Below are positions 16,923 through 36,114 of a DNA stretch of 64,000 nucleotides, piece by piece. A program made the position numbers and the translations under genes. The notes below the pieces were generated by a model that was given only the letters and a program-made list of their open reading frames with translations, searched no databases and was not told the origin of the DNA. Within the stretch, counting starts at the first letter, position 1, and every line of letters starts with the position of its first letter. Origin of the DNA: Alphaproteobacteria bacterium (GTDB taxonomy: Bacteria; Pseudomonadota; Alphaproteobacteria; RF32; CAG-239); NCBI GenBank assembly GCA_017475705.1, contig JAFVFB010000032.1:4971-68970 (forward strand), given 5' to 3'.

Positions 16923-16925
16923 TCT

Positions 16926-17552
16926 TTATTTGATAGACCATATAACGGTATTTTTACCATCAATACACAGGTCCTTTGTAGCATATTTAGCAATTGGTAA
17001 AGCTCTCTGTCCACCCCATTCAAATGCATAAGTTCCCTTGATATTCAGTATACTGATGCTGTTAAGCTTGAGATATTGTTGTTCATTGAGCGGTGCCTCT
17101 GCATATGAAATACATTGAGCTTTTGTTAAGTTAGGTAGAACAATATCAAATGTTTGCCCCATTGGCATAACCGTTTCAGCGTGTTCTCCGCTACCGATCA
17201 AAATAGGTGTGCTTCGCCCCAACACAATTTGCTGGTTTTTAATAAAATTGCTTGGCAATAGCTTGTTTTTTATTACAAACTCACTATTAAGCCCCCAATA
17301 ATCAGGCTTATCAGCATAAAATGTACGTACATCATCAGATATAGCAAATACATCATGGATATTTTGCTGAATATTTCGTTGTGAAAAAGTGCATGAAAAA
17401 TACCCCATTGCAATGATGAGCATTGGCAATCCGATTTTAATAATACTATCACGATGACGAACAGACCACAAGCCAAGCTTCTGTACCCAAGGATTGGTTA
17501 CCAAACCATCAGGAATAAAAGATTTTAAATTTTTGAAATTCTGTTTCTCCAT
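16926..17552 (-). CDS. Hypothetical bitopic protein at the PilS (pilin) position of the pil-like operon; possible non-canonical pilin
   Basis: Start MEKQNF lies 4 nt after the platform-gene stop. It has one hydrophobic helix (IIKIGLPMLIIAMGYF) and a C-terminal Cys pair (LTKAQCISY ... KDLCIDG) like a pilin D-region. There is no G/xxxxE prepilin cleavage motif. Confidence 0.3.
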   Translation of the reverse strand: MEKQNFKNLKSFIPDGLVTNPWVQKLGLWSVRHRDSIIKIGLPMLIIAMGYFSCTFSQRNIQQNIHDVFAISDDVRTFYADKPDYWGLNSEFVIKNKLLPSNFIKNQQIVLGRSTPILIGSGEHAETVMPMGQTFDIVLPNLTKAQCISYAEAPLNEQQYLKLNSISILNIKGTYAFEWGGQRALPIAKYATKDLCIDGKNTVIWSIK

Positions 17553-17556
17553 CTTA

Positions 17557-18678
17557 CTACCCCATAGCGCTTGTAATTTGATCTTGCATATCAAATACGC
17601 CAAAAACCGCCCATGCGATAATGCCGGAAATAGCAAACATTGCTACCATATTCAAGATAGATGCTTTTGCCTCCACCGCTTCAGCGGATTCTTCCAACCA
17701 ATCATTAGCCAATCTATCCAAGGCCTCTTCAAAATTATCTAATTCTGCATAGATTCGTAAATCAGCCACAATATCTTTATCAGGAAAGTTGAGCTTAGAT
17801 TTAGATAAGGCCTGTCCGAGGTTATCACCGTTTTTGATAAAATCCATCGCCCGATCAATTCTTTCTTGTAGATAGCGATTAGAATCTTTTCGCAGTGATG
17901 ACATTGCCACAGAAATCGGTACCCCACCTTTAATTAAGGCAGAAAGTGACAGCAACCAAGTGATACCCATAAACATTTTATACAAAGACCACGGTGGGCA
18001 GTCATCAATAGCTTTACGCGTCGGTCCTGTCCAAATACCGATGGTTGCATAAATTATGACAAACAAAATAGGGAAGAAAGAGAAAGCGAAAAGCCAATTA
18101 TCCTTAATCCAGTGAGAAACATTCACCAAATCCCGTGCTGTACCAGACCAACGGGCATTAGGAGCAGCTTCTTCCATTGGCGGAACCATATATGCCCCGA
18201 TGGCATATATAACCAAAACCGACATTAACAGCAAAAAAGAAGGATAGGCGATTGCGCCGATAATCGGCTTTAACATCTTATCAGTACCTTCTGCCACGCG
18301 GATTAGGTTACGCAAAGCACTTTCCAAGTCAGACATATCCCCCACAGAAAGCATAAGTCTCTCGCGGCTAGGCGCCCATCCCTTAAGAGCATCAGAAAAG
18401 GCATAACCATTTTGCAAAGATTTACCCCATGATGCAATAGCAATAGCCATCGGCTCATTTGGGTGCTTACCATTATCAGTAATACTATCATACATAATAT
18501 CGAGCGAATTCATCAAGGAGAAACGGTTTCGCAGCAATGACGATAATTTTTTATAAACTTTAAGCCGTGCTTTACCGGACATCCCAACTCTAAATCTGGC
18601 ATAAGAAACTTCTAATGAGCCCAAAGACTTCATTGCTTTATTAAACGTACTATGATTTTCATCATCTCTTTTAGCCAT
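17557..18678 (-). CDS. Type IV pilus/T2SS platform protein (GspF/PilC family; R64 PilR-like)
   Basis: 373 aa with two repeated cytoplasmic helical domains separated by TM helices. It sits immediately downstream of the GspE-type ATPase. Confidence 0.7.
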   Translation of the reverse strand: MAKRDDENHSTFNKAMKSLGSLEVSYARFRVGMSGKARLKVYKKLSSLLRNRFSLMNSLDIMYDSITDNGKHPNEPMAIAIASWGKSLQNGYAFSDALKGWAPSRERLMLSVGDMSDLESALRNLIRVAEGTDKMLKPIIGAIAYPSFLLLMSVLVIYAIGAYMVPPMEEAAPNARWSGTARDLVNVSHWIKDNWLFAFSFFPILFVIIYATIGIWTGPTRKAIDDCPPWSLYKMFMGITWLLSLSALIKGGVPISVAMSSLRKDSNRYLQERIDRAMDFIKNGDNLGQALSKSKLNFPDKDIVADLRIYAELDNFEEALDRLANDWLEESAEAVEAKASILNMVAMFAISGIIAWAVFGVFDMQDQITSAMG

Positions 18679-18690
18679 ATATCAAATCCT

Positions 18691-20340
18691 CTAATAAACA
18701 GGACGCTGGTCAATTAAGCCACACCATCTTTCCACTTCGTCCATATCAATTTGTCCTTTAATCATGCGTTCGATAGCAGCTTCTTTGAGGGGACGACCAT
18801 CAAGTTCGCTCACCCAATAGTCGATAGCTTTAGCTGTTTCGTTATCAATCATTAGTTTTAAAAAGTGTGAATCGGGCAAAATAATTTCATCAACAGCCAT
18901 TCTTCCTTTAAAGCCTTTATAGCCGCAAGCTTTACATCCAGGACCACTTACATATACATTTTCGATACCATATTCACCTAATGCATGTTTAAGGCGGTTA
19001 AATTCAGGAGAACCTTCCTTTGTTTTAATAGACTGCCGGCAAGCTGGGCATAATTTTCTAAACAGACGTTGCGAAACGAGGCCTTTTACCAGCTCTGGGT
19101 CATTAAGCAAATATGGCTGAATTCCCATATCGCGCAAACGAGTGACGATAGCCGGCGCGGAGTTAGCGTGCAAGGTAGTCCATACACCGTGTCCAGACAA
19201 AGCTCCCTTAAAAGTAAGTTCAGCAGTCGAGAGAGAACGTGTTTCACCCACGAGGATAACATCAGGGTCAGAACGCAACGCTGCAGACAAAGCTTTAGTA
19301 AATTGCTCATTTTTTTCTTCTTCAGTATTAGCGTTCGTCACAGGCATTTGGCGTGCCCCAGGGATAGGATATTCTGGAGGGTCTTCCACTGTCAAAAGGT
19401 TAATCTGATAATTTTTTTCTTGTAGTAATTTAATCATGTTGCGCTGCAATGTTGTTGATTTACCAGAACCAGTCGGTCCTGCCACAACATTTAATCCCAC
19501 AGCCATACTACGCATCTTGTAAAACAGATCTTCCTCATATTTACCAAGCCCGAGCGAGCGCAAATCAGAGCTACCCTCAGGGTTATCATCAGCATAAAGT
19601 AAGCGCATAACCAAATACTGAGAGCCAAACGCAATAGGATTAAATTGCAAACGGATAGCCAACACATTATGCGGTAGCATAAGTTTACCATTAGAACCAC
19701 GTAACGGCGTAGAGCCAAGCTTTTGTGCACCTTGAAATTCATTTTGCGAATAGTTTGAATCTGAAATATCAGCAGAAGCAAACACCGCACGCACAAATGC
19801 CTCACCCCATTCTCCGCCGTATTCATTTTGCTTTACCATAATACCGTTCTCGCGGAACAATATAGTCGAAGATGAACCCACAATAACATGTATATCAGAA
19901 ACTTTTTTTTGCGATGCACGTTGGATAATGTTAATAAAGTCGATTTGCATTTGCATATCGGCAGCCTCTTCCGCCGAAACATCAACCGTACCACCGCCAC
20001 GTTCTGCATAAGCATAAATGGCAGAAATTTCATTCAGAGTAACATAGATAGGGGCTTTTATCGGAATTTTTCTTCTTTTAACATTTGCCTCAAAATTATA
20101 TACCGCTCCATCAAATCTATTATCCTTTGAAACCAGATAAGTTCCATCAGAAAAGAGGGCTAATAGTCGTCTTGTCTCATTAGAAATAGCAAAGTCGGAG
20201 CCACTCACAGTCAAAAGCTTATTATTGTTTGCAAACAACGTATCAAACAAACTAGTCTTTTTTGTCTGTTGAGCACCGGTATCTTCCTCCTCAAAATCAG
20301 ATACTTCTGCTTTATTTTGCTGTTTATTTTCCTCTGCCAT
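18691..20340 (-). CDS. GspE/PilB-family secretion ATPase (R64 PilQ-like)
   Basis: Walker A AGPTGSGKSTT, Asp box LTVEDPPEYPIPG, Walker B DPDVILVGETR, His box GHGVWTTLHANS, and a tetracysteine cluster CPAC...CKAC. Confidence 0.9.
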   Translation of the reverse strand: MAEENKQQNKAEVSDFEEEDTGAQQTKKTSLFDTLFANNNKLLTVSGSDFAISNETRRLLALFSDGTYLVSKDNRFDGAVYNFEANVKRRKIPIKAPIYVTLNEISAIYAYAERGGGTVDVSAEEAADMQMQIDFINIIQRASQKKVSDIHVIVGSSSTILFRENGIMVKQNEYGGEWGEAFVRAVFASADISDSNYSQNEFQGAQKLGSTPLRGSNGKLMLPHNVLAIRLQFNPIAFGSQYLVMRLLYADDNPEGSSDLRSLGLGKYEEDLFYKMRSMAVGLNVVAGPTGSGKSTTLQRNMIKLLQEKNYQINLLTVEDPPEYPIPGARQMPVTNANTEEEKNEQFTKALSAALRSDPDVILVGETRSLSTAELTFKGALSGHGVWTTLHANSAPAIVTRLRDMGIQPYLLNDPELVKGLVSQRLFRKLCPACRQSIKTKEGSPEFNRLKHALGEYGIENVYVSGPGCKACGYKGFKGRMAVDEIILPDSHFLKLMIDNETAKAIDYWVSELDGRPLKEAAIERMIKGQIDMDEVERWCGLIDQRPVY

Positions 20341-20370
20341 TTTTCATACCACAAGAAACATTAAAAAAGA

Positions 20371-21927
20371 TTATTTTTTATCACCATCTTTGAGCAAACC
20401 AAGAGTCGGCACAATTCCATCAATGGTTTTACCCACATAAAGGTAATCATCACGCCCATCGCGACTAAAGCGCACATAATCCGAACCAATTTCACTAACT
20501 ACATGACCTGTTGGCAAAGGTGAGCCAACTTTAAGCGAGCTAGATTGTCCTTTCAAATCGATAATATCAACAGACATATTACCTGATTGGCCTTTAATAC
20601 CTAAAATAGCATATTCGCTACTTAGTTTATAAGGAGTGGCATTTTCTTCCGCAATTTGGTCAGAAACAGCCGTTTCTACTTTTGCATCAGTTGATCCTGT
20701 TGTGGCATTAACAGCATTCATCATTGCCGCATTTTTATCTTTTAATTCCTCAATAGATTGTGTCTTAAGATAAAGACTGCTTTTTGCATTGCGAATAATC
20801 AGTGCATCAGCTTCGATTCTTTTTCGTAATTGTTCATTACGAGCCTTAAGTCCTTTTACGATTCTTTCAAAATTAGCACGTGCAGCTTCGGCTGCTTGGA
20901 TATTTTTAGCCGATGCTTCCAAAACAGTATCCAATTTCTGCTTAAAGGAGGCAATAACATCTCTTTTTTCCTGTTCCATATCATTAATTTGGTTGTAAAG
21001 AGCTTCTTTTTCCTTCAACCAATCTTGTTGCATCAAGAGCATTTGGTTCATATAAGCATTAATAAGCTTGCGCTGTTTCAACACTTCAAACATTTTTTCT
21101 TTATCTACCAAAATTTGTTTTTCTCTCAAAACCTGAGCTTCGATTTGTTTTTCTCTTTCCAGATTTTTCAATCTCTCTTCATTTTTCTGTCTTTCGATTT
21201 CCTCAGCATTTTTGATGCGAATAGCTTTTTGCGCTTCTATCTCGTTACGGATTTTTTCACGTCTTAATTCCAAGGTTAGCAGAGTAGTACTCTTTTCAAT
21301 AGCCGACATTTGTGAAAACAAATCATCATCAATTTGTGAAAGAACACTATTACTCAGATTCTCGACAGGATTAGTTTTATATTGGATATTTTGCGGCATA
21401 TCTGCATCATTGATTTCCTTGCCAAGATTATCAGTTCTTTGCCCAGGAGTAACCGCTTTCATTTTTAAATCAAAGTCAAAATCATCACGAGCAGCATCAG
21501 CTTGATTTTCTGCAAGAGCATCATTAGCTACCTTTTCAGTCTGTTCATTTGTAGATGCTGTCGTCTCAGTAGTCGATTCGCCAGAGGTAATAACTTTTTC
21601 GGCAGAAACCTTTTCCTCAATATTTTGCTTAGCTGAATCCAAAGTCTCTTCTACTTTCTGAGGCACAGTCTCAACCGCCGCAGTTTCTTCTGCTATAGTC
21701 GCTTCAACTTTTTTCACAGCTTGTGCTTGTGATGGAGACACCAAAGCAGCATTAGCTACCGCATCAACCGTAGCAGGCTCAGTGGATTTCTGGTTTGCAA
21801 CATTAATTGGCAAACTGGCTGCGTTAACATTTTCCAAGGTTGTCTCTTCAGCGCAAACATAAACTGGATTAGATAAAATAACTAAAACAGTTAAAGCCCA
21901 AAGAGTCTTTTTATTTCTACTGAACAT
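20371..21927 (-). CDS. PilP-like pilus biogenesis protein with a very long coiled-coil/acidic insert
   Basis: Signal peptide (MFSRNKKTLWALTVLVILSNPVYVCA). A C-terminal ~70 aa (YAILGIKGQSGNMSVDIIDLKGQSSSLKVGSPLPTGHVVSEIGSDYVRF) resembles the type IVb PilP domain. The middle part is ER/K-rich heptad-like sequence. Confidence 0.45.
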   Translation of the reverse strand: MFSRNKKTLWALTVLVILSNPVYVCAEETTLENVNAASLPINVANQKSTEPATVDAVANAALVSPSQAQAVKKVEATIAEETAAVETVPQKVEETLDSAKQNIEEKVSAEKVITSGESTTETTASTNEQTEKVANDALAENQADAARDDFDFDLKMKAVTPGQRTDNLGKEINDADMPQNIQYKTNPVENLSNSVLSQIDDDLFSQMSAIEKSTTLLTLELRREKIRNEIEAQKAIRIKNAEEIERQKNEERLKNLEREKQIEAQVLREKQILVDKEKMFEVLKQRKLINAYMNQMLLMQQDWLKEKEALYNQINDMEQEKRDVIASFKQKLDTVLEASAKNIQAAEAARANFERIVKGLKARNEQLRKRIEADALIIRNAKSSLYLKTQSIEELKDKNAAMMNAVNATTGSTDAKVETAVSDQIAEENATPYKLSSEYAILGIKGQSGNMSVDIIDLKGQSSSLKVGSPLPTGHVVSEIGSDYVRFSRDGRDDYLYVGKTIDGIVPTLGLLKDGDKK

Positions 21928-23191
21928 AAATTGTCCCCTCATAATTCCAAGTGCCACGATTATATAGTATAGTATTAACCTTAAGTCCTGAAAATTTTGT
22001 TAACACATCTTTCCAAACATTAGGGTCATACTTAGATGTTATCTTAAAGTTTATATAAGAATATGTCTTATCTCCGGCGCGAACATTACCATCGGTCAGT
22101 CCGACCTGCAGATTTAGTGATTGAAATAAATCATTAATCAAGTTACGTGTTTCATTAGCTGTTTTTTTCGGAACAGAATTAACTTTTTTTGCTTGAGAAA
22201 AAGGAAGCGACACCGTAACAATATTCGCACGTTGGTCAACAGTTTTATTTGCAAAAGTAAGTCCAGAATGGCTAAGAGACATTTCCAACCATGAGAGTCT
22301 GCCAAACTCTCGTCGCCAAGATGTGATTGCCTCCGACGGTGTACATGTAATACCCATATTTATCCATCCTGGTGTAGCAATATCAATCAAAGCTAAAGCT
22401 TTTTCACGGCAAGTATCTACCATCCATACAGGATCAACCATAGATTCCCACGGTGCCGGTACAACTTTAACCACTTCTTTGACAACCTTTTTCTGTGCCC
22501 GTCGGGTAATAACCTTATTTTGTTGTGTTGGTGCTGTAAAAAACGCTTGAGAAAGATACATTACCAACCAAGCTCCTACAGCCACTGATAAAATAACCAC
22601 AATAGCCAGTTCGGCACCACGCAAAGCATTAATTTTTTCTAATTTTGTATCTAAGCCAGCCGCAAAAATTTCTGCAATATCTTTTTGTTCAGTTTCATCG
22701 ATTCCCCACTCTGCCGGGGCAATTTTCTTCGACCAATCTGGAACAGAAAGCATAGACATAAATTGCTCTTTAGCATCTTCTTCTTTTACAAATAGAACAT
22801 CACCATCAGAAAGAATAACATCATTTCTAATACACAAATACCAGTATCCGGCATCAACCTTAAACACGGCCAATAACGATGGAGAATCACTCATTGCAGT
22901 AGCTGCTGTAACAGCTGCTACATTCATGCCTTTCTTAAAACCTTGGGTGGAAACCGCTAAACCAAGCTGAGGAGATTTACCATGTTTAACACAAAACAAA
23001 TCAGCTCCAACCAAAACATTTTCAGCCGCTTCTTTTGCATCTAAAAATGGCGCATCAACATTTTGCAAGCTTTCCCAAAAAACACTGGCCGCATACTGCA
23101 CCCCGTCCACAGTAAAACTAGCCGCCCATTCTTTACTGTTCTCGCGGAGCGCATCAAAATCGTTTATTTCCATATCGCTTCTATCTGCCAC
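21917..23191 (-). CDS. PilO-like (type 4b pilus PilO2 family) membrane protein
   Basis: 424 aa, close to the size of R64 PilO as I recall it, with a central TM helix (LAIVVILSVAVGAWLVMYL). It sits between the secretin and PilP-like genes. Assigned from position and general pattern only. Confidence 0.4.
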   Translation of the reverse strand: MADRSDMEINDFDALRENSKEWAASFTVDGVQYAASVFWESLQNVDAPFLDAKEAAENVLVGADLFCVKHGKSPQLGLAVSTQGFKKGMNVAAVTAATAMSDSPSLLAVFKVDAGYWYLCIRNDVILSDGDVLFVKEEDAKEQFMSMLSVPDWSKKIAPAEWGIDETEQKDIAEIFAAGLDTKLEKINALRGAELAIVVILSVAVGAWLVMYLSQAFFTAPTQQNKVITRRAQKKVVKEVVKVVPAPWESMVDPVWMVDTCREKALALIDIATPGWINMGITCTPSEAITSWRREFGRLSWLEMSLSHSGLTFANKTVDQRANIVTVSLPFSQAKKVNSVPKKTANETRNLINDLFQSLNLQVGLTDGNVRAGDKTYSYINFKITSKYDPNVWKDVLTKFSGLKVNTILYNRGTWNYEGTIYVQ

Positions 23192-23207
23192 GGCCTAATC
23201 CTCATCT

Positions 23208-24809
23208 TTAGAATCTCATCCGAGATTCAGGTAATAAAGGAGATTCCAATACAACCGGTGTTAACAAAATAACTAATACCGTTCTAACTTTATCAACCTT
23301 TTGTTTGCCACCTAAAATATTATTATTAATGGCACCTAAGCCAGTTTTATTACTTCTGGTATCAACGCGTTCATAACCAGCCAAAACAAGTGTGTCACCA
23401 GATTTCATACTAATCTCTTGCGAAAACCCTCTTTCCACTGTCTTTGGATTCTGTACATAGTTCTCACCCACATCAACGCGCTCCAAATCAATCAGGTTAG
23501 AGAGCATCAAACTAAACAGCATCATCAACCGTCCATGGTCCATAACTCTTGGCAAAACATCCATCGTAAAGCCCGTTTCAATCTCATCTGTTTCGATAGA
23601 TATATCATAATTGTCACCAGTGGAACCACTATTTGTTTTGGTGATTTCAGATACATAATTTTGTTTTGTTACCACTTGAATTGGTGCCGGTTTGTTATTC
23701 ATTGTCGTAACGGTACCACTCGTCACAAGGGTTGTTGTCGTTTGCTTTGCCAATGCCTCAATAGCAGCATCAACAGAAACATCGCCACTCAAAATCTTCA
23801 TAGAAAGTGAACCATTTGCGGCATCTTCTCCAGTGCCTAGACCGCCAGGTGTTATAAGCGTCCCTAAGCTAACTTTGCCACCATTAGCTGTTCTATCTTT
23901 GAATGCCGCATCTAAATCAAAACCAAATCCTCGTGTATCGTCCACTTCGACTTCTAGCACTTTAATGCTGATAGCAACTTGTCTAGCCAAACGAATATTT
24001 TGCTCATGAACATATTTTGCAACCTTCTTAATTTCAGTCGGCGTTGCTGTAATAGTCAGCGTCCCATTCATCGGGTCAGTAATTAAAGTAGAACCAGCCC
24101 CAAGCATAGATTTCACGGCGTCAACAATACTACCCCAAACATCAATATTGGAGATATTTGTTGTGATACTTCCGCCACCGGAAGAACTGCTAACACTAGA
24201 AGTCATAGAAGGCTTAGTTGGTAAGGTGTAGAGAGTAAAGATTTTTGTGGTATACTTATAGATATATATCTCTCCGTTTTCATATTTCCACCATACGCCA
24301 AAATAAGAGCAAACCTCATCAAGCAAACCGCTTAAAGAACCTTTATAAGAAACCAGCATTCTAGATGTATCAGACCACTTAGAACCCACTTTATTAACTG
24401 TTGGCGCATTTCTATCTGCCGCAGCTTTTGCCGTTCCTTCAAGTTGTGCGGCTAAGCGTACTTTAATAGATGTAATCTGGTTAATCATACTGCCAATTTC
24501 ATAAAGCGTAATAGGCCTGTTGCTAACCAAAGTCACACCATCTGCTGTTTCTAGATAACTAGGCAAAGGTTTATCGCCTTCGTATTCTATTTCGCTTGTA
24601 TCTCCAAGCCATATATCATCTTTAACGCGTACAACATCTGTTTCTTCCTTGGGTTGAGGTACCTTTGCATCTTCTTTATAGCGAATAGTTGCATCAACAT
24701 CGCGTTCAATAGCCGCGTCATAATCTGTTGGGAGCGAGCAAGATGCAATACCCAACAGCAACACCGCTGCAAATCCGATTGAAATTTTTCTATTAGTACG
24801 CATTCTCAT
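23208..24809 (-). CDS. Secretin lipoprotein, R64 PilN family (type IVb pilus outer-membrane channel)
   Basis: Lipobox LLGIASC. C-terminal secretin domain (GFTMDVLPRV ... SGDTLVLAGY ... TVLVILLTPVVL). The N-terminal part SLSGLLDEVCSYFGVWWKYENGEIYIYK resembles PilN/BfpB-type secretins. Confidence 0.8.
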   Translation of the reverse strand: MRMRTNRKISIGFAAVLLLGIASCSLPTDYDAAIERDVDATIRYKEDAKVPQPKEETDVVRVKDDIWLGDTSEIEYEGDKPLPSYLETADGVTLVSNRPITLYEIGSMINQITSIKVRLAAQLEGTAKAAADRNAPTVNKVGSKWSDTSRMLVSYKGSLSGLLDEVCSYFGVWWKYENGEIYIYKYTTKIFTLYTLPTKPSMTSSVSSSSGGGSITTNISNIDVWGSIVDAVKSMLGAGSTLITDPMNGTLTITATPTEIKKVAKYVHEQNIRLARQVAISIKVLEVEVDDTRGFGFDLDAAFKDRTANGGKVSLGTLITPGGLGTGEDAANGSLSMKILSGDVSVDAAIEALAKQTTTTLVTSGTVTTMNNKPAPIQVVTKQNYVSEITKTNSGSTGDNYDISIETDEIETGFTMDVLPRVMDHGRLMMLFSLMLSNLIDLERVDVGENYVQNPKTVERGFSQEISMKSGDTLVLAGYERVDTRSNKTGLGAINNNILGGKQKVDKVRTVLVILLTPVVLESPLLPESRMRF

Positions 24810-25713
24810 TCTCCATAGTTTCTACGACAATAACACGGTTACCTTTATAAAAAGTCGCAATAGGGGCAGGTCTCGCTCTGGCAAAAGCTCTAACCAGTGC
24901 TGAGCTTACATCAGTAAACTTACCCTTAAACATAACGCCTGCACTCAAAGTATAGTTACGATTGGTATTCCATAGTAATTTCCAACCAGCCATTTTACTC
25001 CATTCTGTGAGCAATTCACGTAGTGTATCACCTTCTTGAGCATCCCAAGTCAACACTTCAGAATCAGTAACTTTTTTAGCGCCAACCTCAACATTTTCCT
25101 CGTTGCCACCGATTTCAATAAATTCGATATTTTCACCATCTATACCATTGTTTCTAGCATAGTCATCGATGTTAAAGGCTTCTTCTGTAAATTCAGAGGC
25201 TATGTTTCCATCAGGAATATTTGCGAATTGTCCGCAGTCTTGTTGGCAAAAAACTTGATATCCGGGATGAGTAATAACGCCGGAATAATTATTGAGAGGG
25301 TATTGCGGTTCTAAGTTATCTGCACCGGTATTAGCAAAAGCATCTTGCGGTTCATCATCAGTGTACATTGGTTCATATTCAGTCACCACATCTTCTTCAA
25401 TATCCGGTGGAATAGTAGCCGTAAGGTTATTTCCTGCTGCTGCCTGCGTATACAGCTGGTCACGAGGTGTACGCTCACCATAAGCCCGATAGTCGGCCTC
25501 TGTCTTGGTATAATTAATCAAAGCTGTATCATTACAGCCAATACCATCAACACCACATCTGTTATTAGCATCAACAGTAGCATCAATAACCGGTGGTAAA
25601 TCATTCGGGTCAACTTCATAATTTTCATCAGAAAAGCTACTGCATGAGGAAAGTCCGCACGCACACAATACGCAAAACGATAATAAAATATTTTTCTTCA
25701 TAATTTTACTCAT
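24793..25713 (-). CDS. PilL-like lipoprotein with a TcpQ-type C-terminal domain
   Basis: Lipobox CGLSSC. The C-terminal region TLRELLTEWSKMAGWKLLWNTNRNYTLSAGVMFKGKFTDVSSALVRAF matches my recollection of the PilL/TcpQ domain. It overlaps the secretin gene start. Confidence 0.6.
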   Translation of the reverse strand: MSKIMKKNILLSFCVLCACGLSSCSSFSDENYEVDPNDLPPVIDATVDANNRCGVDGIGCNDTALINYTKTEADYRAYGERTPRDQLYTQAAAGNNLTATIPPDIEEDVVTEYEPMYTDDEPQDAFANTGADNLEPQYPLNNYSGVITHPGYQVFCQQDCGQFANIPDGNIASEFTEEAFNIDDYARNNGIDGENIEFIEIGGNEENVEVGAKKVTDSEVLTWDAQEGDTLRELLTEWSKMAGWKLLWNTNRNYTLSAGVMFKGKFTDVSSALVRAFARARPAPIATFYKGNRVIVVETMENENAY

Positions 25714-25822
25714 CTCTAAATACACTCTCACCCACACAATAAAGGTTAAAAATTAATTAATCAAGCGTAACACTTTATTTATAAAACGATTTGTGGACTT
25801 TTTCATTTCATTGGCTCCTTTT

Positions 25823-27148
25823 TTATCTGAACCGCCGTACACGTATGATAAGTGCATTAGGCTCGGTTTGAGAAAAGACAGTGCTAACTTTAGCAAAGTC
25901 CACGCCGTTGTTCATAAAAATAGAATAAAGCAAGTTCAATCTTCTTTTCTGCAGTTCAGAAGCTGTATTAGCATTAAGTCTGACTTCAAGATAAATATCT
26001 TTTTCAAAAGTTGCCTTAGAAAAAGCTTTTAGCCACTGCAATGTCGTGCCGGATATTTCAGCACGTTCTGGCTGGAAAGAAAGTTTAAGCTCTGAGGGTA
26101 GAATTCTTCTTTGAGCGTGCGCCTGTTTCGTCGCTTGTAATGATTCGTAAAGCCGCCCTAAACGATCTGACTTGCTTTCTTCTGTCATTTCTTTTTGCAC
26201 GGGGGTGGGTTTACTATATAAGCTACTATAAGACGGGGCATCTTGTTTTTTTACTGTTGTGCTTTGATGGTTTGCATTGACGGGGTCATTAAACCAAGAG
26301 GAAATGCTGTTTAATAAAAATTTATCCTCTTTGTTGTTTTTCGAAGGTTGTGGTGTTGTAACACGTGGCTTAGTTACCACGGTTTTCTTTTCAACAACAG
26401 GAACCGCAGGTGTGTTGATGGGGGTCTGAACGGTGGATGGAGTATCTCTTTGGATAAAAGTCGGTGTCAGATTCTCATCATTTAAAATTTCATCTGGGAT
26501 GGGGAAAATGATACTTTGTTTAATTTTTTCTGCCACTTTATATGAAACTTCAGAATCATGTTGTGTTACTTGGGAGATATTATCAGTAAATAAAGTTGGT
26601 TGATTTTGAAGCTCTACTGCTTCTGCCAGAATTTTATTTTTGATTTTGGAATTGCTTTTCGTAACTACCCAAGGTGAGTCGTCTTTTGAAGGCGTTTTAT
26701 TTTCAAATAAAGGGTCGGATAAAATGTTATGATTATCACTAATGTTATCGGGTAACATGGCAGATTTATCATCATTTTCATCCCATAAAACTTCGGCTTG
26801 AGAGGCTTCAGCAAGAGGTGAGCCAATTTCGATAGGGATTTCTTCTTCTGTCTCCATGCTAAGGTTAATAATTTCATCGTCTTCGATTCCATCGGGTGAT
26901 ATATTATCCTCATTCTGCTTAGCAATATTAGTCTCGATTTCAAGAGATTCCTTGTGAATTGGTGTAAACAGATAATGAGAGGGTAATTTCTTGGGTAAAG
27001 TATCAGAAGTCTTAAACAAACTAACTTTAATCTCTTGTTTAGGTGAAGGGCTTTTTTCGGGGGTTGCCGAAGGATTCAGCTGTCCATAGAGGGCAAAGCC
27101 GGATACAGAAAGTAAAAATCCTAAAACAAAATTTTTAATGTCTGACAT
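25823..27148 (-). CDS. Hypothetical membrane-anchored/exported protein, first gene of the pil-like operon
   Basis: 441-aa ORF with an N-terminal hydrophobic segment FVLGFLLSVSGFALYG, a long Pro/Thr/Asp-rich apparently disordered region, and a compact ~90-aa C-terminal domain. No family recognised. Confidence 0.5.
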   Translation of the reverse strand: MSDIKNFVLGFLLSVSGFALYGQLNPSATPEKSPSPKQEIKVSLFKTSDTLPKKLPSHYLFTPIHKESLEIETNIAKQNEDNISPDGIEDDEIINLSMETEEEIPIEIGSPLAEASQAEVLWDENDDKSAMLPDNISDNHNILSDPLFENKTPSKDDSPWVVTKSNSKIKNKILAEAVELQNQPTLFTDNISQVTQHDSEVSYKVAEKIKQSIIFPIPDEILNDENLTPTFIQRDTPSTVQTPINTPAVPVVEKKTVVTKPRVTTPQPSKNNKEDKFLLNSISSWFNDPVNANHQSTTVKKQDAPSYSSLYSKPTPVQKEMTEESKSDRLGRLYESLQATKQAHAQRRILPSELKLSFQPERAEISGTTLQWLKAFSKATFEKDIYLEVRLNANTASELQKRRLNLLYSIFMNNGVDFAKVSTVFSQTEPNALIIRVRRFR

Positions 27149-27382
27149 AGGTTAGCTGTTTTCCTAAACATAAATATTGCTTCACTTAATCGTTAACCAT
27201 ATTTTAAACATTGTTTAGAATCTTTAGCAAATATATTTTAGATTTAATAACAACAAATTTTGACCGACTCGCGAAAATATCGACATTATCGCGTTTTTAC
27301 AATAAGGTGAGTCACCAAACCTGTCAAAAAGATAAATAAAAAATAAGATTTGTTTTTTAGGCTTTAAATTTGAATTTTTTTG

Positions 27383-27391
27383 TGCTATTAT
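27383..27391 (+). promoter_or_regulatory. Candidate extended -10 promoter (TGcTATTAT) for the 160-aa gene; the same AT block reads TATAAT on the minus strand (27387-27392)
   Basis: TGCTATTAT lies 37 nt upstream of the ATG at 27428. On the minus strand, TATAAT has TTCATA 17 nt upstream of it (27410-27415). Confidence 0.25.
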
Positions 27392-27427
27392 ATAAGCAGA
27401 AGAAAATTTTATGAAGAGGATTGAAAT

Positions 27428-27910
27428 ATGAGTACTCTAAACAAAGAAGATCTTGAAAGGTTACAAGAGGCCAAACAACGCCAATATCAAGAATCAAAGC
27501 TTGAGTTAGACATTAACAAGGTCTCTATAAGAGAGTTCTTCCAAAAATATGGAAACATGGATGAGCGTCTTGTTAGTCGTGAATTGGTTGTAGAAACAGG
27601 TCATGGGGAAGATAAGCGCGAGACTGTTGTTTTTGGTATAGAGTATGATCAGTCCGGTCAAGTGGGTGCCATCTATCAGCAAAATTATAAAGAGCCAAAG
27701 CGTATGCTTAAAATAGAAGATTTGGTTGAGACAAATGGAGCTTTCAAAAAATTTGTGAATGAGCGGATGGAGTATTTGTTAGGCAATATGCAAGCGAAAA
27801 AAGAGAAAGTTCGGGCTAATACCTCAAAAGAGGCACCAGCTCGCAAAAAAGTTGTCGTTCGTAAAGTAACACCGACCTTGGCTAAAGAGCGTGATACACA
27901 TAGCATATAA
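27428..27910 (+). CDS. Hypothetical cytoplasmic protein with a basic C-terminal tail (candidate locus regulator or accessory factor)
   Basis: 160-aa ORF with AAGAGGA upstream, no signal peptide, and the C-terminal sequence KKEKVRANTSKEAPARKKVVVRKV. Confidence 0.5.
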   Translation: MSTLNKEDLERLQEAKQRQYQESKLELDINKVSIREFFQKYGNMDERLVSRELVVETGHGEDKRETVVFGIEYDQSGQVGAIYQQNYKEPKRMLKIEDLVETNGAFKKFVNERMEYLLGNMQAKKEKVRANTSKEAPARKKVVVRKVTPTLAKERDTHSI

Positions 27911-28029
27911 ATTTTTTAGCACAAATTTATAGTATGAATTTTTTGTTACAAAATTAAAATATATAATAAAAACATAGCATTAGTGATATTTTCCTCTCCT
28001 TTTTTTTACTGGAAAATTTTGAATATTTA

Positions 28030-28038
28030 TGGTATACT
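28030..28038 (+). promoter_or_regulatory. Candidate extended -10 promoter (TGgTATACT) for the virB2-led operon
   Basis: TGGTATACT at 28030-28038, TGGAAA 17 nt upstream, and the GAGGAGGG RBS at 28053-28060 before the ATG at 28068. Confidence 0.3.
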
Positions 28039-28067
28039 AAAACCAATAATTAGAGGAGGGTATAGCT

Positions 28068-28397
28068 ATGTTTGGACTAACTAAAATAGAAACATATATC
28101 TTTCTGGCAGCATTAATAGTGGTAATCTGTATGCCAACAGACTGCTTTGCTGCATTTGAAACACTAAAAGAGACAGGTGGTAACATATTTAGAGGCCTGC
28201 GCAAAATCATTTATCCTGCATCAGCGATTGGTGTCATATGCGTTTGCATTGGCGGCTTTTTTGGTAATATAAATTGGAAGTGGCTGACGGCGGTTGTTGT
28301 CGGTTTAATCGTTATCACACTGTGCAGTGGTTTTATAGAAATGTTTGCAGCGACCAATATTCATCTTGATCAAACAGATACATTAAATGGTGGTTAA
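28068..28397 (+). CDS. VirB2/TrbC-like T4SS pilin
   Basis: 109 aa: a long signal peptide ending CFA-A, then two hydrophobic helices joined by a short loop (GGFFGNINWKW). Confidence 0.6.
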   Translation: MFGLTKIETYIFLAALIVVICMPTDCFAAFETLKETGGNIFRGLRKIIYPASAIGVICVCIGGFFGNINWKWLTAVVVGLIVITLCSGFIEMFAATNIHLDQTDTLNGG

Positions 28398-28408
28398 GGA
28401 GCAGAACA

Positions 28409-29044
28409 ATGAGAAACTTAAATAAAATATTATTGATGAGCATAATGTGCGTAGCTTGCCTGCTATTGTTCAGTTCAGATGCTTTTGCCGCTGGTAATTT
28501 TATGAGCGAAACAGCCTCCAAAATTACAACAACATTCAAAAAAACCAAAGGCATTATCTTAATTATCGGCGGTTTTGGTATAGTCGGCGTTACCTTCTTT
28601 GCAATTTTTGGTAAGATGAAATGGCCATGGCTAGCAGGTTTGTTAACGGGGTTAGCTGTTTTAGCCGCTACTGGTGCTCTCATTCACTATGCAACTGCGG
28701 GTGGTCATGCCCTAACAGAAGGCGGTGGTGGTAGTGATAATATTTTTGACTTTTTCTCAGGTCGTGCGCGAGATTTTGCCATAGGCTTACAAAACATTGC
28801 TTTCTGTCTTGGCGGTTTTGGAATTGTTATGTTCACTTTCCTAGCTATTTGTGGTAAAATCAATTTCAAACATTTGGGCTATATCTTTATTAGCTTATTC
28901 CTATTATCCGGCACAGGTTTGTTTATCAGTTATTGGACAGGTGGTCATGCAGATGGTCTTGGCCAATTAAAAGGTTTTGCCTCTCCTAAGAGTTTTACAG
29001 CAAATTCGGCCGGAGATACATTTAATAGCAGCCTTGGCCGCTAG
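28409..29044 (+). CDS. Tandem (duplicated) VirB2-like pilin fusion
   Basis: Signal peptide (AFA-AG) followed by two copies of the two-helix VirB2 module (IIGGFGIVGVTFFAIFGKMKWPWLAGLL... and CLGGFGIVMFTFLAICGKINFKHLGYIF...), joined by a Gly-rich linker. Confidence 0.55.
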   Translation: MRNLNKILLMSIMCVACLLLFSSDAFAAGNFMSETASKITTTFKKTKGIILIIGGFGIVGVTFFAIFGKMKWPWLAGLLTGLAVLAATGALIHYATAGGHALTEGGGGSDNIFDFFSGRARDFAIGLQNIAFCLGGFGIVMFTFLAICGKINFKHLGYIFISLFLLSGTGLFISYWTGGHADGLGQLKGFASPKSFTANSAGDTFNSSLGR

Positions 29045-29153
29045 TCATAAAGTCTATTTTATCCACAGGTTTATTGTTTAAATTTAAGAATTTAACTGTT
29101 TTGTAATAATTTTTAGCCTATAATATCACTCGAATATTATAGAGGGAAAGTCG

Positions 29154-29444
29154 ATGAGAGATATCATATTGAAAGCGGTAGCCAATCCTCCGAAGTTATT
29201 CTGGGGTCCGGTTTTGCCAGCAGCACTCAATGCCGGCATACAGATTCCGTTTATGTTTATGGCGATTGGTATCTGGCAGATAAATCCGCTTATTTTCATC
29301 ATTTCCATCGTTATCGGACATTTGATTGTTGTGGCATTAGGGAGCAAAGATCCGCACTTATCCGGAATGCTTCAAGCATTTGGTACAACCAATATGCCAT
29401 CAACAAATTTATATCGAGTGAAAGGGCGCAAATTTGAACCTTAA
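29154..29444 (+). CDS. VirB3-like T4SS inner-membrane protein
   Basis: 96 aa with the N-terminal PPKLFWGPV motif region, two TM helices and KDPHL. It sits directly upstream of VirB4 and overlaps it. Confidence 0.7.
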   Translation: MRDIILKAVANPPKLFWGPVLPAALNAGIQIPFMFMAIGIWQINPLIFIISIVIGHLIVVALGSKDPHLSGMLQAFGTTNMPSTNLYRVKGRKFEP

Positions 29445-31884
29445 TTTTGACTTTTATACGCTGTTTTTAACAGGTTTACAAAGTGCCGACGCATTAGTTG
29501 CCTTATTCGGTATAATCGCAGCTGCGGCCTTAATAGTTTCTTTAGTAACAAAAGTCGGTGCAAAAGTCTTACCGCAGCCGAGTGAATCGCGCGTAGCAGA
29601 TTTTTTACCTTTTAATAGTTTGCTATCAGATGGCGCCACGCTACGATGTGACAATGGTACATATGTCCGAGTATTCAAAGTCGAGGGTGTCGATTTAACA
29701 TCAGCCCGAGAAGAGACGATTCTCTCTATGTTTGAAGCTCGCAAAGCCTGGTTGGATAATATGGCAGATATGCAGGTCACCTGCCGCGTTATAACATTAA
29801 GAGAGCGAGTACCTGTATCGGGTAATAAAAGTGATTTTGGCAATAAGTGGTTGAAAATTGTGGATGATACTTGGCGCCAGAGCTTAAACCGTGTATACAA
29901 AAATGACCACTATATAGTATTATCTATCGAAGACCGTAAAGATGCCGTTAAAGATTTGAACTATGCCTCGCAGTCTGTATTAGCCAATTTAAATGACTAT
30001 GGTATTAAAGTTATGCATGAAGATGAAGACAGTCCTGCCGAACTCAGCCCTGTATATCCCTTTGTTCGCACCTTAAATCCGATAAGTAAACCCACACCAA
30101 AAGTAAGAAATACCCAAGGTTTTCAACTCAAAGAAATGTTAACAGCAGATGGCATACATTTTACTGGTGAAGAAGGGGTTATCAAATACTTTTCTGGCGG
30201 CAAAGAAAAATATGCCCTAACAATGGGAATACGAAATTCCGGTGATTATATGGATGAAAGTATGATATCATCATTGTTGGCAATAGATTGCGAATTAACA
30301 GTTCTGCATAACATTCATCCGATATTTAAGCCCAAAGCACGTATGATTTTAGTTCAACAACAAAAGATGGCAGAAGTAACCAATTTCTCTGGTGATGTTG
30401 TGCAGCAATATAGCGAAGCACTAGCTTCAATAGAAGATAGTGATACCGACCACCAGTCATTGGTAGAATATTCCATGAGTTTCATCGTCAAAGGCGATAC
30501 GATGAAAGAAATAGAGTTCGGCGAGAGTGAGATACAGCGTATTTGCCGTTTATACAGTGTTACGCCTGTCCGCGAAAATTGGATTGCTCAGGCTACTTTC
30601 TTCAATCAATTTCCAGGTTTTGATAAATGTGGTCGTACCTATTTTTATTTATCGCGCGTTGTCTCATTAGCAGTTAGTTTTGAACAATTATCGACAGGGT
30701 TACCACGTAGTGACTGGGGCGAAGGCCCAATAACAGTTTTTAGGACGATGAGTGGTTCGCCATATCGTTTTCAATTTCACATTTCAGCAGAAGAATCAGC
30801 CGTTGCACACTGTTGCATCATCGGTCCGACTGGGCAAGGTAAAACAACCTTATTAACATTTTTAGCAGGCCAAGCAATGCGTCATAGCGATTTAAAAGTA
30901 TACTTTTTTGATCGTCACCGTGGTGCAGAGATTTTTACGCATATGGCAAAAGGTAAGTATGTAGGGTTTAGCGGGGAGCGTAAAAATGTATCCTTAAATC
31001 CATTTGATAGCCGCGATACCCAAAGCAACCGAGCTTTCCTAAAAAATTGGTTAAAGTCAATAACCATGGCTAAAGATGCACTTTCAGAGCGTGAGGCTGC
31101 ACGAGCGGTAACAACCGCCTTTGAATATCTGCGCCCGGAAGAACGTGTTTTAACCAATTTATACAAAAGTTGTTTCTCACCAACCGGAGTAATGCGTCGG
31201 GAACTATATCGTTGGGTAAACCCGGATCAATATGGTAATATTTTTAATGCCGAGCACGATAGTCTGGATTTATCAACTAACAGATTTGTTGCCTTTGATT
31301 TTACAGAGATATTTGATGATGATGTTTTAGCAGCAGCATCTATTAGTTACATTATGCACCGCATACATGCCGAAAGCACAGAAACCGGCAATCCAGCCTT
31401 AGTAATGATTGATGAAACTGCTCCAATGCTAAAGCATGAAATGTTTCGAGATGCCTTTATAAAGGGGTTGCAAGAAGGCCGTAAAAAACGTCAAGCATAT
31501 TTATGTGCGTTTCAACAGCCAAATATCATAGACACACTGGGTGTCGGTGATGCTATACGCGGTCAATGCAAAACTATGATTTTCTTTAGAAACACTCAAG
31601 CCACACCAGAATCATATGAAAAATGGAATTTAACAGACAGCGAATATGATTTCATAAGTGGCAAAATTTATCGCGACTTTCCTTATGCAATATTATTAAA
31701 GCGTCCGGATGCCGATGATGGTAAGGGTGAGTCAGTTATATTAGATGTTAACCTAAGTGCACTCGGACCGTATCTAAAACTATACAACTCAGGCATAAAG
31801 AATGTATTACTCGTAGAAAGTCTGGTCAAAGAGTTTGGTGAAGATGCATTCGTAATAAAGTATTTAGAGAGTTTTGGCGGCTGA
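29434..31884 (+). CDS. VirB4-family T4SS ATPase (apparent TTG start)
   Basis: 816 aa. Walker A GPTGQGKTTLL, Walker B ALVMIDETAP. The N-terminal part resembles VirB4 (LRCDNGTYVRVFKVEGVDL). Confidence 0.9.
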   Translation: MNLNFDFYTLFLTGLQSADALVALFGIIAAAALIVSLVTKVGAKVLPQPSESRVADFLPFNSLLSDGATLRCDNGTYVRVFKVEGVDLTSAREETILSMFEARKAWLDNMADMQVTCRVITLRERVPVSGNKSDFGNKWLKIVDDTWRQSLNRVYKNDHYIVLSIEDRKDAVKDLNYASQSVLANLNDYGIKVMHEDEDSPAELSPVYPFVRTLNPISKPTPKVRNTQGFQLKEMLTADGIHFTGEEGVIKYFSGGKEKYALTMGIRNSGDYMDESMISSLLAIDCELTVLHNIHPIFKPKARMILVQQQKMAEVTNFSGDVVQQYSEALASIEDSDTDHQSLVEYSMSFIVKGDTMKEIEFGESEIQRICRLYSVTPVRENWIAQATFFNQFPGFDKCGRTYFYLSRVVSLAVSFEQLSTGLPRSDWGEGPITVFRTMSGSPYRFQFHISAEESAVAHCCIIGPTGQGKTTLLTFLAGQAMRHSDLKVYFFDRHRGAEIFTHMAKGKYVGFSGERKNVSLNPFDSRDTQSNRAFLKNWLKSITMAKDALSEREAARAVTTAFEYLRPEERVLTNLYKSCFSPTGVMRRELYRWVNPDQYGNIFNAEHDSLDLSTNRFVAFDFTEIFDDDVLAAASISYIMHRIHAESTETGNPALVMIDETAPMLKHEMFRDAFIKGLQEGRKKRQAYLCAFQQPNIIDTLGVGDAIRGQCKTMIFFRNTQATPESYEKWNLTDSEYDFISGKIYRDFPYAILLKRPDADDGKGESVILDVNLSALGPYLKLYNSGIKNVLLVESLVKEFGEDAFVIKYLESFGG

Positions 31885-31959
31885 AAAACGTTGACAAAAT
31901 CTAAAAAAAATGGTACACTAAAATAAGCTAAAAGTATTATTCTAAGCAGGAGAAATATT

Positions 31960-33099
31960 ATGAAGATACGCAAGCAATATGTTGTCATTTTATTTTATTA
32001 TATATTGCTCATCGCGGCACCGGCACAGGCACAAATACCGGTCAGCAATTTTATTGAAAAAATTTCGACTTCTGCCCAACTCACAACTACCAGTAAAGCC
32101 TTAGTAAATATCAAAGAACAACTGACACAGCTTGCAGAAGGGCTAAGAAGCTTAGGTATTGGTGGACCAACAATTGCAATGTTTCAAAAAAATCTCAAAG
32201 GTATAAATCAAAAAATAAAAAAACTGAGTTCTCTTACTTCAGCCAACATCGTATCTTCTTTAACCGGCAATATAAATATTCAAAAAAGTGTAACGGATTC
32301 TCTTAAAGACATTACTTCCAAACAAAACATTCTTTCTGGCCAATTGGTTAGCCAGGTTGAATCAAGCTTAAATATCAGCAAAAACATCAGCAAAGCGACT
32401 GGAAATATCCAAAAAACAATTACTCAAGGCCTAAACAAAGAAATAAATAGTGGTATTTCCTCATTTTCTTCCAGTTTTAAAGACAGCTTTAACAAAAATC
32501 TTACAGTTGAAGAAGAGGAGGAGGAAGAAGAAATTGCTCTCAAAGATGCTCAAGAGGATGTGCAATATATATTTGAAAGCATAAAAGCAGAAAGTGCCCA
32601 GTTGACAACAGAATTAAACGATTCGCTAGATGAGGCTCTGAGCATACTCAATCTCGGAGCAGATTTAAACAATAAGCAACTGCAAGCACTAAAAAGTGCC
32701 TTGCAAGAGTGGCAGATACCCAATAGTCAGCAACAGAAAGAAGCTCTTGAACAACGCTTATCCGCATTAATACAAAGAGAGCAAAACGCATCAGATTGGG
32801 GGGCCAGAATCATAGAAAGTGCTAAAAACCGCTATAATCAAGAATATCAAGACAAAATCAAAGAAGGCATCAACAGCTATGAAAAAGTTGTCCAAGCATA
32901 TCTATCAGGAAGAGTAGAGCAGCAAGAAGTTATTGCCGCTGGAGAAAACCTAAAAAGAGAGATTTCTCAAATCGATGTTATACCAGACGCAACCGTTATA
33001 GCAAACTATACCAAAGAGCTGGATTCAATAAAGGCAGAAATAGAAGTCCTTACTCAAGATATAGAACAACTAACCAATCATAAAAAAAATAAAATTTAA
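31960..33099 (+). CDS. Secreted coiled-coil protein (possibly VirB5/TrbJ-like)
   Basis: Signal peptide ending AQA-QIPV, then Gln/Ser/Lys-rich helical sequence including an E8 run. No TM helix. Confidence 0.4.
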   Translation: MKIRKQYVVILFYYILLIAAPAQAQIPVSNFIEKISTSAQLTTTSKALVNIKEQLTQLAEGLRSLGIGGPTIAMFQKNLKGINQKIKKLSSLTSANIVSSLTGNINIQKSVTDSLKDITSKQNILSGQLVSQVESSLNISKNISKATGNIQKTITQGLNKEINSGISSFSSSFKDSFNKNLTVEEEEEEEEIALKDAQEDVQYIFESIKAESAQLTTELNDSLDEALSILNLGADLNNKQLQALKSALQEWQIPNSQQQKEALEQRLSALIQREQNASDWGARIIESAKNRYNQEYQDKIKEGINSYEKVVQAYLSGRVEQQEVIAAGENLKREISQIDVIPDATVIANYTKELDSIKAEIEVLTQDIEQLTNHKKNKI

Positions 33100-33154
33100 G
33101 GAAACAGCAACAATTTATAGCTAAAAATGTAAGAGATTATTAGGGAGGACCGAG

Positions 33155-35410: not shown

Positions 35411-36114
35411 TGAAAAAGAATATTTGTTTAAGCTTATTATTTTCTTTGGTTTTGCTTGCTAAGCCAGCGCATGCAATTATTGAGTTTCCCTCAATAGCTA
35501 TTTCAGCTCAGGAGTTGAAAGATGTTATTGTTATGCAAGTAGAAGAGTTAATAAGAAAAAAAGTCATGACTAATAGCACCTTAAAAAATGGTTTTGGGAT
35601 TGCCGCCAGTTGTTTTAAAAATCCGGCAAATTGCAATTTGAGCAACCTGACTTCACTGATGCAAAATGGAATAACACGAATTAATAAATTCGCAGTCATG
35701 CCAGGTGTTCCGGCGTTAGCAAGTGGAGATATAACCAAAATAGGTAGTGAAACCTTAGAACAAGCCATCAAAGATGGATATGTCTACACCCAAGGCAAAG
35801 AGAGCTTAAAGCGAGTAAGAGAAAACCGTGACAACGTCAATTCCGTAATAGCAAATGATGCCTCAACACTATTTGCTAAAGGCGCAACAACCAAACTTAG
35901 CATACAGCAAGAAGATAGCACAGAGTTATACCCAGATCCCAGCAACAAAAATAATATGGAAGAGATTTTGTACGTACATAACCGTGCCGGTCTTTTAACA
36001 GAAAGTCGCTTAGCTCATATTCTAGAGCTCAGAGCATATATGGTAGGTGGCCAAGCCACAGCAGAATTAACCACGCAAAGCACAAAGCCGGAAGATAATA
36101 AGGACGGTAACTAA
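35410..36114 (+). CDS. Secreted 234-aa hypothetical protein (VirB5-sized)
   Basis: Signal peptide ending AHA-II, TAATG coupling to the upstream gene, and helical character. Confidence 0.45.
   Translation: MKKNICLSLLFSLVLLAKPAHAIIEFPSIAISAQELKDVIVMQVEELIRKKVMTNSTLKNGFGIAASCFKNPANCNLSNLTSLMQNGITRINKFAVMPGVPALASGDITKIGSETLEQAIKDGYVYTQGKESLKRVRENRDNVNSVIANDASTLFAKGATTKLSIQQEDSTELYPDPSNKNNMEEILYVHNRAGLLTESRLAHILELRAYMVGGQATAELTTQSTKPEDNKDGN

Follow-up and report, generated by a model that had tools for sequence, protein, structure and literature searches.

The window analysed here is a 64-kb stretch (64,000 nucleotides) of contig JAFVFB010000032.1 from the GenBank assembly GCA_017475705.1, which belongs to an alphaproteobacterium of the RF32/CAG-239 lineage. 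Eight co-directional open reading frames (ORFs) lie on its minus strand, running from position 27148 to position 16926 in the order 441-aa protein, PilL, PilN, PilO, PilP-like protein, PilQ, PilR and 208-aa protein, and diverge from a VirB-type type IV secretion system (T4SS) operon on the plus strand (28068..58332). This order is the one given in a preliminary description of the DNA, and Pfam and NCBIfam matches identified PilL, PilN, PilO, the ATPase and the platform. Judged by these matches, the module appears to be the complete envelope-spanning assembly apparatus of a type IVb pilus of the R64/IncI type, with a pilin paralogue that is predicted to be uncleavable (nc-PilS) in the pilS position.

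Pfam matches were sought in the listed ORFs of at least 100 aa and in three shorter ones at E ≤ 0.001, or at 0.01 within the module itself. PilQ (18691..20340) is an assembly ATPase of the GspE/PilB type that matched PF00437 (8e-63) and carries a Walker A motif (GPTGSGKST), a His box and a four-cysteine motif, and PilR (17557..18678), an inner-membrane platform of the GspF/PilC type, matched PF00482 in two stretches (1.8e-26). The outer-membrane secretin PilN (23208..24809) is a lipoprotein (lipobox GIASC) whose best NCBIfam match was the PilN family type IVB secretin (TIGR02520; 2.9e-70, 237 bits, under the equivalog cut-off of 288) and which also matched PF00263 (55 bits). A PilL-like lipoprotein (24793..25737; lipobox GLSSC) matched the C-terminal TcpQ family (PF10671; 6.4e-18, 65 bits, cut-off 27) and is likely the partner of the secretin, and a PilO-like pilin accessory protein (21917..23191) matched PF06864 (PAP_PilO; 2.6e-11, 43.4 bits, cut-off 26.7).

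Two genes of the module were harder to assign. The 528-aa protein in the PilP position (20371..21957) has a signal peptide, an acidic coiled-coil middle and a conserved C-terminal beta domain of ~70 aa. The preliminary description had called it PilP-like, with which the gene position agrees, although all profile matches were sub-threshold (T2SSC, the GspC family, 0.023; Y4YQ_C, 1e-4 in 10 of 13 relatives) and a profile search against the PDB returned only coiled-coil noise; we use the name for this position and these sub-threshold matches. In a related locus, L010, the tblastn match to this gene (5503–7026) contained one in-frame stop near its 5′ end, which may lie upstream of the true start or may be a lesion. 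The first gene of the operon (25823..27148) encodes the 441-aa protein, which consists of an N-terminal membrane helix, a long low-complexity region and a conserved C-terminal domain of ~100 aa. Every related locus has this gene (38–48% identity), and motifs such as SPW and IFPIPxEIL are invariant in its product; it had no Pfam or NCBIfam match, and a profile search of PDB sequences was also blank. Its single-sequence AlphaFold model was poor (pLDDT 46), and we propose a beta-alpha-beta-alpha-beta-beta topology for the C-terminal domain only tentatively. The genes are mostly packed tightly, as had been described, but the statement that all gaps are under 35 nt fails for the 85 nt that separate the 441-aa gene from pilL.

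A type II secretion system was also considered as the identity of the module and did not fit: GspL, GspM and pseudopilins were not found, the GspD and GspE models scored far under their cut-offs, and the set of GspC/D/E/F/L/M, GspG–K and GspO was not recovered.

When one genome per species was scanned, the module was found in 22 metagenome-assembled genomes (MAGs) of uncultured gut and rumen Alphaproteobacteria, the titles of which include 'Acetobacter sp. 46_36', 'uncultured Rickettsiales UMGS1453', RUG, yak rumen, water-deer rectum and mouse gut. The 20 closer loci are referred to here as the main clade; more distant loci, referred to as sister clades, had 66–69% identity to the window in PilQ and 68% in VirB4. 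In the main clade the genes were recognisable and in the same order, and their site beside the atp operon was the same in 19 of the 20 loci. Mean amino-acid identity to the window was 93% for VirB11 (91–95% in 18 full-length loci), 91.9% for PilQ (87–95% in 20 loci), 88.5% for PilR (83–92%), 75.7% for PilN (73–81%), 74.1% for PilO (69–79%) and 49% for nc-PilS, compared with 82.7% for AroK, 72.5% for AtpB, 68.6% for YidC and 61.2% for AddB; VirB4 was 80–90% identical. PilQ and PilR are thus more conserved than AtpB, subunit a of the ATP synthase, and by these identities the motor proteins are among the best-conserved genes of the region and appear to be under strong purifying selection. Since gene order and site are kept and PilQ and PilR exceed AtpB, the module is not decaying.

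The gene content of the 64-kb window is that of core chromosome and not of a mobile element. One flank of the module carries uvrC, pgsA, a two-component pair, trx, addAB, rdgB, rph, aroK, an xerC/xerD-like recombinase gene, dciA, dsbA and atpI-B-E-F′-F, and on the far side of the virB operon lie engB, yidC, rnpA and gpsA. The G+C content is even over the whole region (36–43%), and dnaA, dnaN and recF are found ~15 kb past VirB11 on the same contig, a metagenome contig of 100 kb. The pil module is close to oriC, and in this clade it is core-chromosomal and vertically inherited.

The last gene of the operon (16926..17552), which the preliminary description had left as a 208-aa protein, proved to encode a pilin homologue, nc-PilS. 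It matched Pfam Bundlin with 27.5 bits (cut-off 22.3), and an AlphaFold2 model built on an alignment of homologues (pLDDT 91.5) had a pilin fold, in which a single long helix (residues 34–78) is packed on a beta-sheet head. The top 12 Foldseek matches of this model in the PDB were all type IVb pilins (CofA, TcpA and PilS of S. Typhi; probability 0.99–1.0), with TM-scores of 0.43–0.60 to the closest solved structures. Sister-clade members of nc-PilS scored over the Pfam PilS and Bundlin cut-offs, and within one sister-clade locus, L023, nc-PilS could be matched to the canonical PilS by tblastn (E = 2e-9). A profile search of 1.84 billion representative proteins found only 136 relatives at E ≤ 1e-3, among them ~10 main-clade clusters and ~85 shorter sister-clade proteins, with canonical pilins only from E ~1e-11; nc-PilS would therefore be a small distinct family of ~100 representative clusters.

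In nc-PilS, a basic N-terminal extension of ~39 aa is followed by a hydrophobic segment of 14–18 aa that reaches up to Cys54, an alpha1-C helix and the head domain. We aligned 30 main-clade homologues (45–61% identity) and observed that the C-terminal two thirds were strongly conserved, with Cys147 and Cys196 invariant, and that the first 30–68 residues varied in both sequence and length with a net positive charge. Between these parts, all main-clade proteins had an invariant Lys39, separated by exactly 14 uncharged residues from an equally invariant Cys54, which is followed by Ser or Thr. A Gly(-1)/Glu5 motif was conserved neither in these 30 proteins nor in the ~35 sister-clade members that were read out of ~85, which had a basic N-terminus, a transmembrane helix of ~20 aa and no Cys. 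The ATG of nc-PilS lies 4 nt past the pilR stop codon and is preceded by a GGGG stretch, which makes it most likely that the N-terminal extension is translated, and the annotated start codon is probably correct. A shorter true start that would give a normal signal peptide was rejected on the position of this ATG and GGGG stretch and on the reading frame, which in every homologue runs without a stop through at least 25 codons ahead of Lys39.

We infer from these features that nc-PilS is an old paralogue of PilS in which a basic cytoplasmic extension and a short membrane anchor have taken the place of the class III signal. With its class III signal replaced, nc-PilS should be no substrate for a prepilin peptidase and should be barred from the usual route into a filament. 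Type IV pilins that are not cleaved or have lost Glu5 fail to assemble, so nc-PilS should remain in the membrane. TcpA, CofA and BfpA, of the toxin-coregulated pilus, CFA/III and the bundle-forming pilus, share its fold (Foldseek probability 1.0) and the Bundlin family; unlike nc-PilS, with its cytoplasmic extension of 30–68 residues, they polymerise, and their class III signal contains both Gly(-1) and Glu5. Lipidation of nc-PilS at Cys54 is possible from the sequence, but we did not adopt it as the explanation, given the few homologues with a lipobox core and the lack of the Cys in the sister clade. The Cys is invariant, Ala or Ser stands at -1 in 29 of the 30 homologues and the n-region is positively charged; the PROSITE lipobox core was found in only 9 of the 30, with a Tyr at -3 breaking it in the other 21, and the Cys lies at position 45–83, compared with the ~15–35 residues from the N-terminus that are expected of a lipoprotein.

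Several parts of an R64-type system were absent from the window, in agreement with the preliminary description, which had reported no prepilin peptidase, no canonical prepilin signal and no PilM, PilT or PilV. Among the scanned ORFs there was no match to Peptidase_A24, SLT, PilM or Shufflon_N, and no polytopic ORF of the window carried the peptidase motif GxGD[..]K. The sole match in a six-frame scan of the window for Gly-x4-Glu with a hydrophobic stretch was the N-terminus of VirB2. Of the R64-type parts, PilU, PilV with its shufflon, the PilT lytic transglycosylase and PilM were thus not found in the window, nor did the operon contain a PilS prepilin bearing such a signal of class III; a prepilin of this kind was found in the operons of six sister-clade loci.

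In these six loci (L023, L024 and L058–L061), nc-PilS shares its operon with a PilT-like ATPase and with canonical PilS prepilins, one to three per locus, all encoded downstream of it. These prepilins gave matches to Pfam PilS and Bundlin, and their signal is '...G|RSMVEMLGVLAIIGVL', with Glu5. The occurrence of nc-PilS together with canonical prepilins in one operon argues that it is an accessory part and not a major subunit, degenerate or otherwise. Just downstream of the sister-clade pil operon there is also a triad of genes for a vWA protein, a PP2C phosphatase and a Ser/Thr kinase (L023 13875–16751, L024 12932–15805, and L058/L060). In three other sister loci (L032–L034), four tandem prepilins directly follow virB11, where the T4SS operon ends and ~30 kb away from the pil operon; the ATPase gene is close to them. 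Beyond this prepilin array and the PilT-like ATPase, the minus strand of L032 (14355–20555) carries a further gene set, with products of 239, 428, 244 and 891 aa that have no Pfam match, which ends in another VirB8 homologue, and this stretch may be a second T4SS-related cluster.

A PilT-family ATPase of 315–327 aa (best family match TIGR01420, pilT_fam, 108 bits) is encoded convergently between nc-pilS and atpF in 16 of the 20 main-clade loci. Three loci lacked it at that site, the window and two of its closest relatives (L004 and L005), and L010 was rearranged there; in the window the site is reduced to the nc-pilS/atpF stop-codon junction (16923..16925), and no PilT-family ATPase was found elsewhere in the window. 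One main-clade locus, L045 (VirB11 93% identical), has a single canonical prepilin, 'NQDG|RSMIEMLGVLAIVGVL', between virB11 and engB. It has a large cysteine-rich head and no Pfam match, and could be an adhesin. A stretch of ~190 nt upstream of this gene (L045 1850–2042) was at least 80% identical to several high-depth contigs in three gut runs, with a summed depth of up to ~300 in one run; it is not a tRNA, an Rfam scan of the window and of L045 gave zero matches, and no counterpart was found near pilin genes in any other locus examined.

An A24-type peptidase motif was found in none of 61 loci (0.99 Mb), including all that bear prepilins, and in the prepilin-bearing sister clades neither the module nor the pilins had a peptidase within 10 kb. 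An unlinked peptidase is therefore normal for this lineage. Throughout the loci examined, canonical PilS and the PilT-like ATPase are encoded apart from the core operon, and the peptidase is unlinked in every case.

Taken together, we consider it reasonably probable that the window encodes a classical pilus machine that is coupled to the T4SS and whose pilins and peptidase are encoded elsewhere. The supply of these missing parts from elsewhere in the genome, which is the better supported of the two ideas in the preliminary description and which we regard as probable on its own account, is favoured by the sister loci that have prepilins and no linked peptidase, by the pilins that lie ~30 kb from the pil operon and by the prepilin of L045. 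In such a machine, PilQ would power PilR, which would lift cleaved PilS subunits into the filament; the filament would exit through PilN with PilL as the partner of this secretin, and PilO and the PilP-like protein would bridge both membranes. nc-PilS would stay in the inner membrane at the PilR platform as a fixed pilin-fold anchor, base or stopper. The archaellum proteins FlaF and FlaG have the fold of filament subunits and are membrane-anchored, fixed parts of a type IV filament machine; they are archaeal and have no sequence homology to nc-PilS, so that the likeness to its proposed role is a functional analogy only.

By analogy with known systems, the pil machine most likely serves the T4SS as a cell-contact (adhesion) pilus, and the pilus would give the T4SS contact with a target cell. 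A link with the neighbouring T4SS, as had been suggested, is consistent with the divergent pil/virB arrangement, which is kept in L031 (VirB4 80% identical) and in L029/L030 (VirB4 68%). The two operons are probably co-regulated from the shared intergenic region (27149..28067). Promoter-like hexamers were seen there on both strands at a frequency not above that in shuffled sequence.

The module resembles the pilI–pilV thin-pilus clusters of R64/IncI1 and IncI2 (TP114) in its L-N-O-P-Q-R-S order, its PilL lipoprotein of the TcpQ type and its PilN lipoprotein secretin. The thin pilus of R64/TP114 operates beside a T4SS as a contact device (PMC9045228). Unlike the plasmid-borne R64/IncI clusters, the window system is chromosomal, vertically inherited and near oriC, its partner is a VirB-type and not an I-type T4SS, the gene in its pilS position is predicted to be uncleavable, and PilM, the PilT transglycosylase, PilU and PilV with its shufflon were not found in it. 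The relatives of the window carry a PilT-family ATPase, which to our knowledge R64 lacks. The R64-like pil operon of PAPI-1 has no prepilin peptidase of its own, and its PilS2 depends for maturation on PilD, which is encoded at an unlinked site of the host chromosome (PMC8565334); it thus sets a precedent for a type IVb pilus that relies on an unlinked host peptidase. This pil2 cluster, which belongs to an integrative and conjugative element (ICE) of Pseudomonas aeruginosa, is like the window in that no peptidase is encoded in the operon, and the PAPI-1 pilus serves a T4SS; unlike the window, which has only the uncleavable paralogue in a core genome, it has canonical PilS2 and PilV2 in the operon and lies on a mobile island. 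Chromosomal vertical inheritance, pairing with a VirB-type T4SS, the uncleavable PilS paralogue and the PilT-family ATPase of the relatives set the system apart from R64, TP114 and PAPI-1, and a search of a literature library found no description of this system or of the T4SS or pili of this clade.

R64-type type IVb pili have been described on plasmids and islands, for which they draw conjugating cells into contact. The machine of this type described here would be a highly conserved core feature of widespread uncultured gut and rumen Alphaproteobacteria, placed head-to-head with a T4SS that carries giant repeat proteins, and this pairing points to a contact-dependent lifestyle in these little-known bacteria. 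nc-PilS occurs in the operon both with and without canonical pilins and may be a bacterial pilin-fold protein that has been kept as a fixed machine part.

Several observations weigh against a supply of pilins and peptidase from elsewhere. Both places in which relatives have prepilins, after nc-pilS and after virB11, are empty in the window: the gap between virB11 and engB (58333..58508), where canonical PilS-type prepilins stand in relatives, is 176 nt long and has no pilin similarity. The PilT-like ATPase is missing from its usual place, and ~79 kb of contig (the window and ~15 kb more) contain no peptidase-like or pilin-like gene. All 20 main-clade loci are without pilins after nc-pilS. A metagenome scan with VirB11 returned 20 main-clade loci, of which 19 extend beyond virB11, and in 18 of these engB comes directly after it, as in the window. 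The invariant Cys of nc-PilS, in its lipobox-like context, was acquired in the main clade and has no counterpart in the sister clade; it could mark a change of function after the loss of pilins. One further observation speaks for a supply from elsewhere: the window organism was present in three gut runs (depths ~11, 5–7 and 6) that contained 11, 4 and 7 contigs, respectively, matching the conserved N-terminal coding stretch of prepilins, several of them at similar depth. At least two related organisms share these samples, however, so that the prepilin-like contigs are not assignable to the window organism, and an assignment by read depth was rejected.

These observations bear on an alternative in which the lineage of the window has lost its canonical pilins, this subclade has lost the PilT-like ATPase as well, and the secretin, ATPase and platform work only with nc-PilS. 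The latter would then be a piston, plug or gate, anchored in the membrane or lipidated at Cys54, and the machine would form no classical filament and would act in secretion or surface display, possibly of products of the T4SS operon. The empty pilin and ATPase sites of the window and the missing pilins of the main clade fit this explanation, as does the spacing from Lys39 over 14 residues to Cys54, which is a derived, invariant feature of the main clade that the sister clade lacks. The very strong constraint on PilQ and PilR is also in its favour, as it argues that the motor is in use. Against it stand the prepilin of L045, which shows that a main-clade genome can hold a class III prepilin, the prepilin-like contigs in the gut samples, the small share of homologues with a lipobox core and a Cys that is unusually far from the N-terminus for a lipoprotein. 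Moreover, we know of no type IV filament machine that functions without a cleaved pilin. We therefore regard this explanation as rather unlikely, and equally doubtful, if not slightly more so, is its specific form, a motor independent of prepilin peptidase in which nc-PilS, possibly lipidated at Cys54, is a tethered piston or gate serving the adjacent T4SS. If the window lineage truly has no peptidase, this would be the first type IV filament machine without one.

The other idea of the preliminary description was that the T4SS has recruited this core of secretin, ATPase and platform, either for an outer-membrane conduit or for an assembly motor. The divergent arrangement with virB is tight and conserved, one sister clade encodes its pilins at the end of the virB operon, and VirB7 and VirD4 were not recognised in the window, all of which would suit such a takeover. 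However, the virB operon already encodes outer-membrane core proteins (VirB9 and VirB10) and ATPases (VirB4 and VirB11) of its own, relatives provide the machine with two hallmarks of a real pilus, namely ordinary PilS prepilins and an ATPase of the PilT-like kind, and a hybrid of this kind has not been described. A role of the secretin as T4SS conduit thus found no support, and we consider the takeover improbable.

That a mobile pil cluster, IncI-like or ICE-borne, lost pilS, pilU and pilV and left the module as its decaying remnant is very improbable, since, although the window lacks a peptidase, a canonical pilin, PilV, a PilT-type transglycosylase and PilM, and its subclade also the PilT-like ATPase, the decay that the preliminary description had entertained is refuted by eight intact ORFs, a gene order that can be recognised at one chromosomal site throughout 20 or more species and the conservation of PilQ and PilR above ATP synthase subunit a, and is further opposed by the even G+C content and by the lack of flanking mobile-element genes other than one housekeeping-like xerC/xerD recombinase gene.

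The virB operon itself, as assigned by Pfam matches, encodes two VirB2 proteins, VirB3, VirB4, large uncharacterised proteins, two VirB8 proteins, VirB9, a 2199-aa beta-flower protein, VirB10 and VirB11. In the window Pfam matches, no VirB7, VirD4-type coupling protein or relaxase was recognised in the operon or beside it. The second VirB2/TrbC-like gene (28409–29044) encodes 211 aa with about five predicted membrane segments, ~2 times the usual length. The VirB9 (CagX) homologue (44812–46617) has a C-terminal SPOR peptidoglycan-binding domain. Nearly all of the 2199-aa protein (46614–53213) consists of beta-flower repeats (PF21785 in 22 stretches, 4.5e-148; PF21784; DUF3659; RHS), and in the 1381-aa VirB10 homologue (53185–57330) beta-flower repeats are fused ahead of the TrbI domain; relatives retain both the 2199-aa beta-flower gene and the repeat-fused VirB10 gene. 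VirB11 is encoded by the last gene before engB.

In the window species, the pil/virB intergenic region holds a Lys/Glu-rich ORF of 160 aa without a family (27428–27910, plus strand). It was not found in the corresponding spacer of L029–L031, which is ~300 nt long in L029/L030 and in L031, and it is either lineage-specific or else no real gene.

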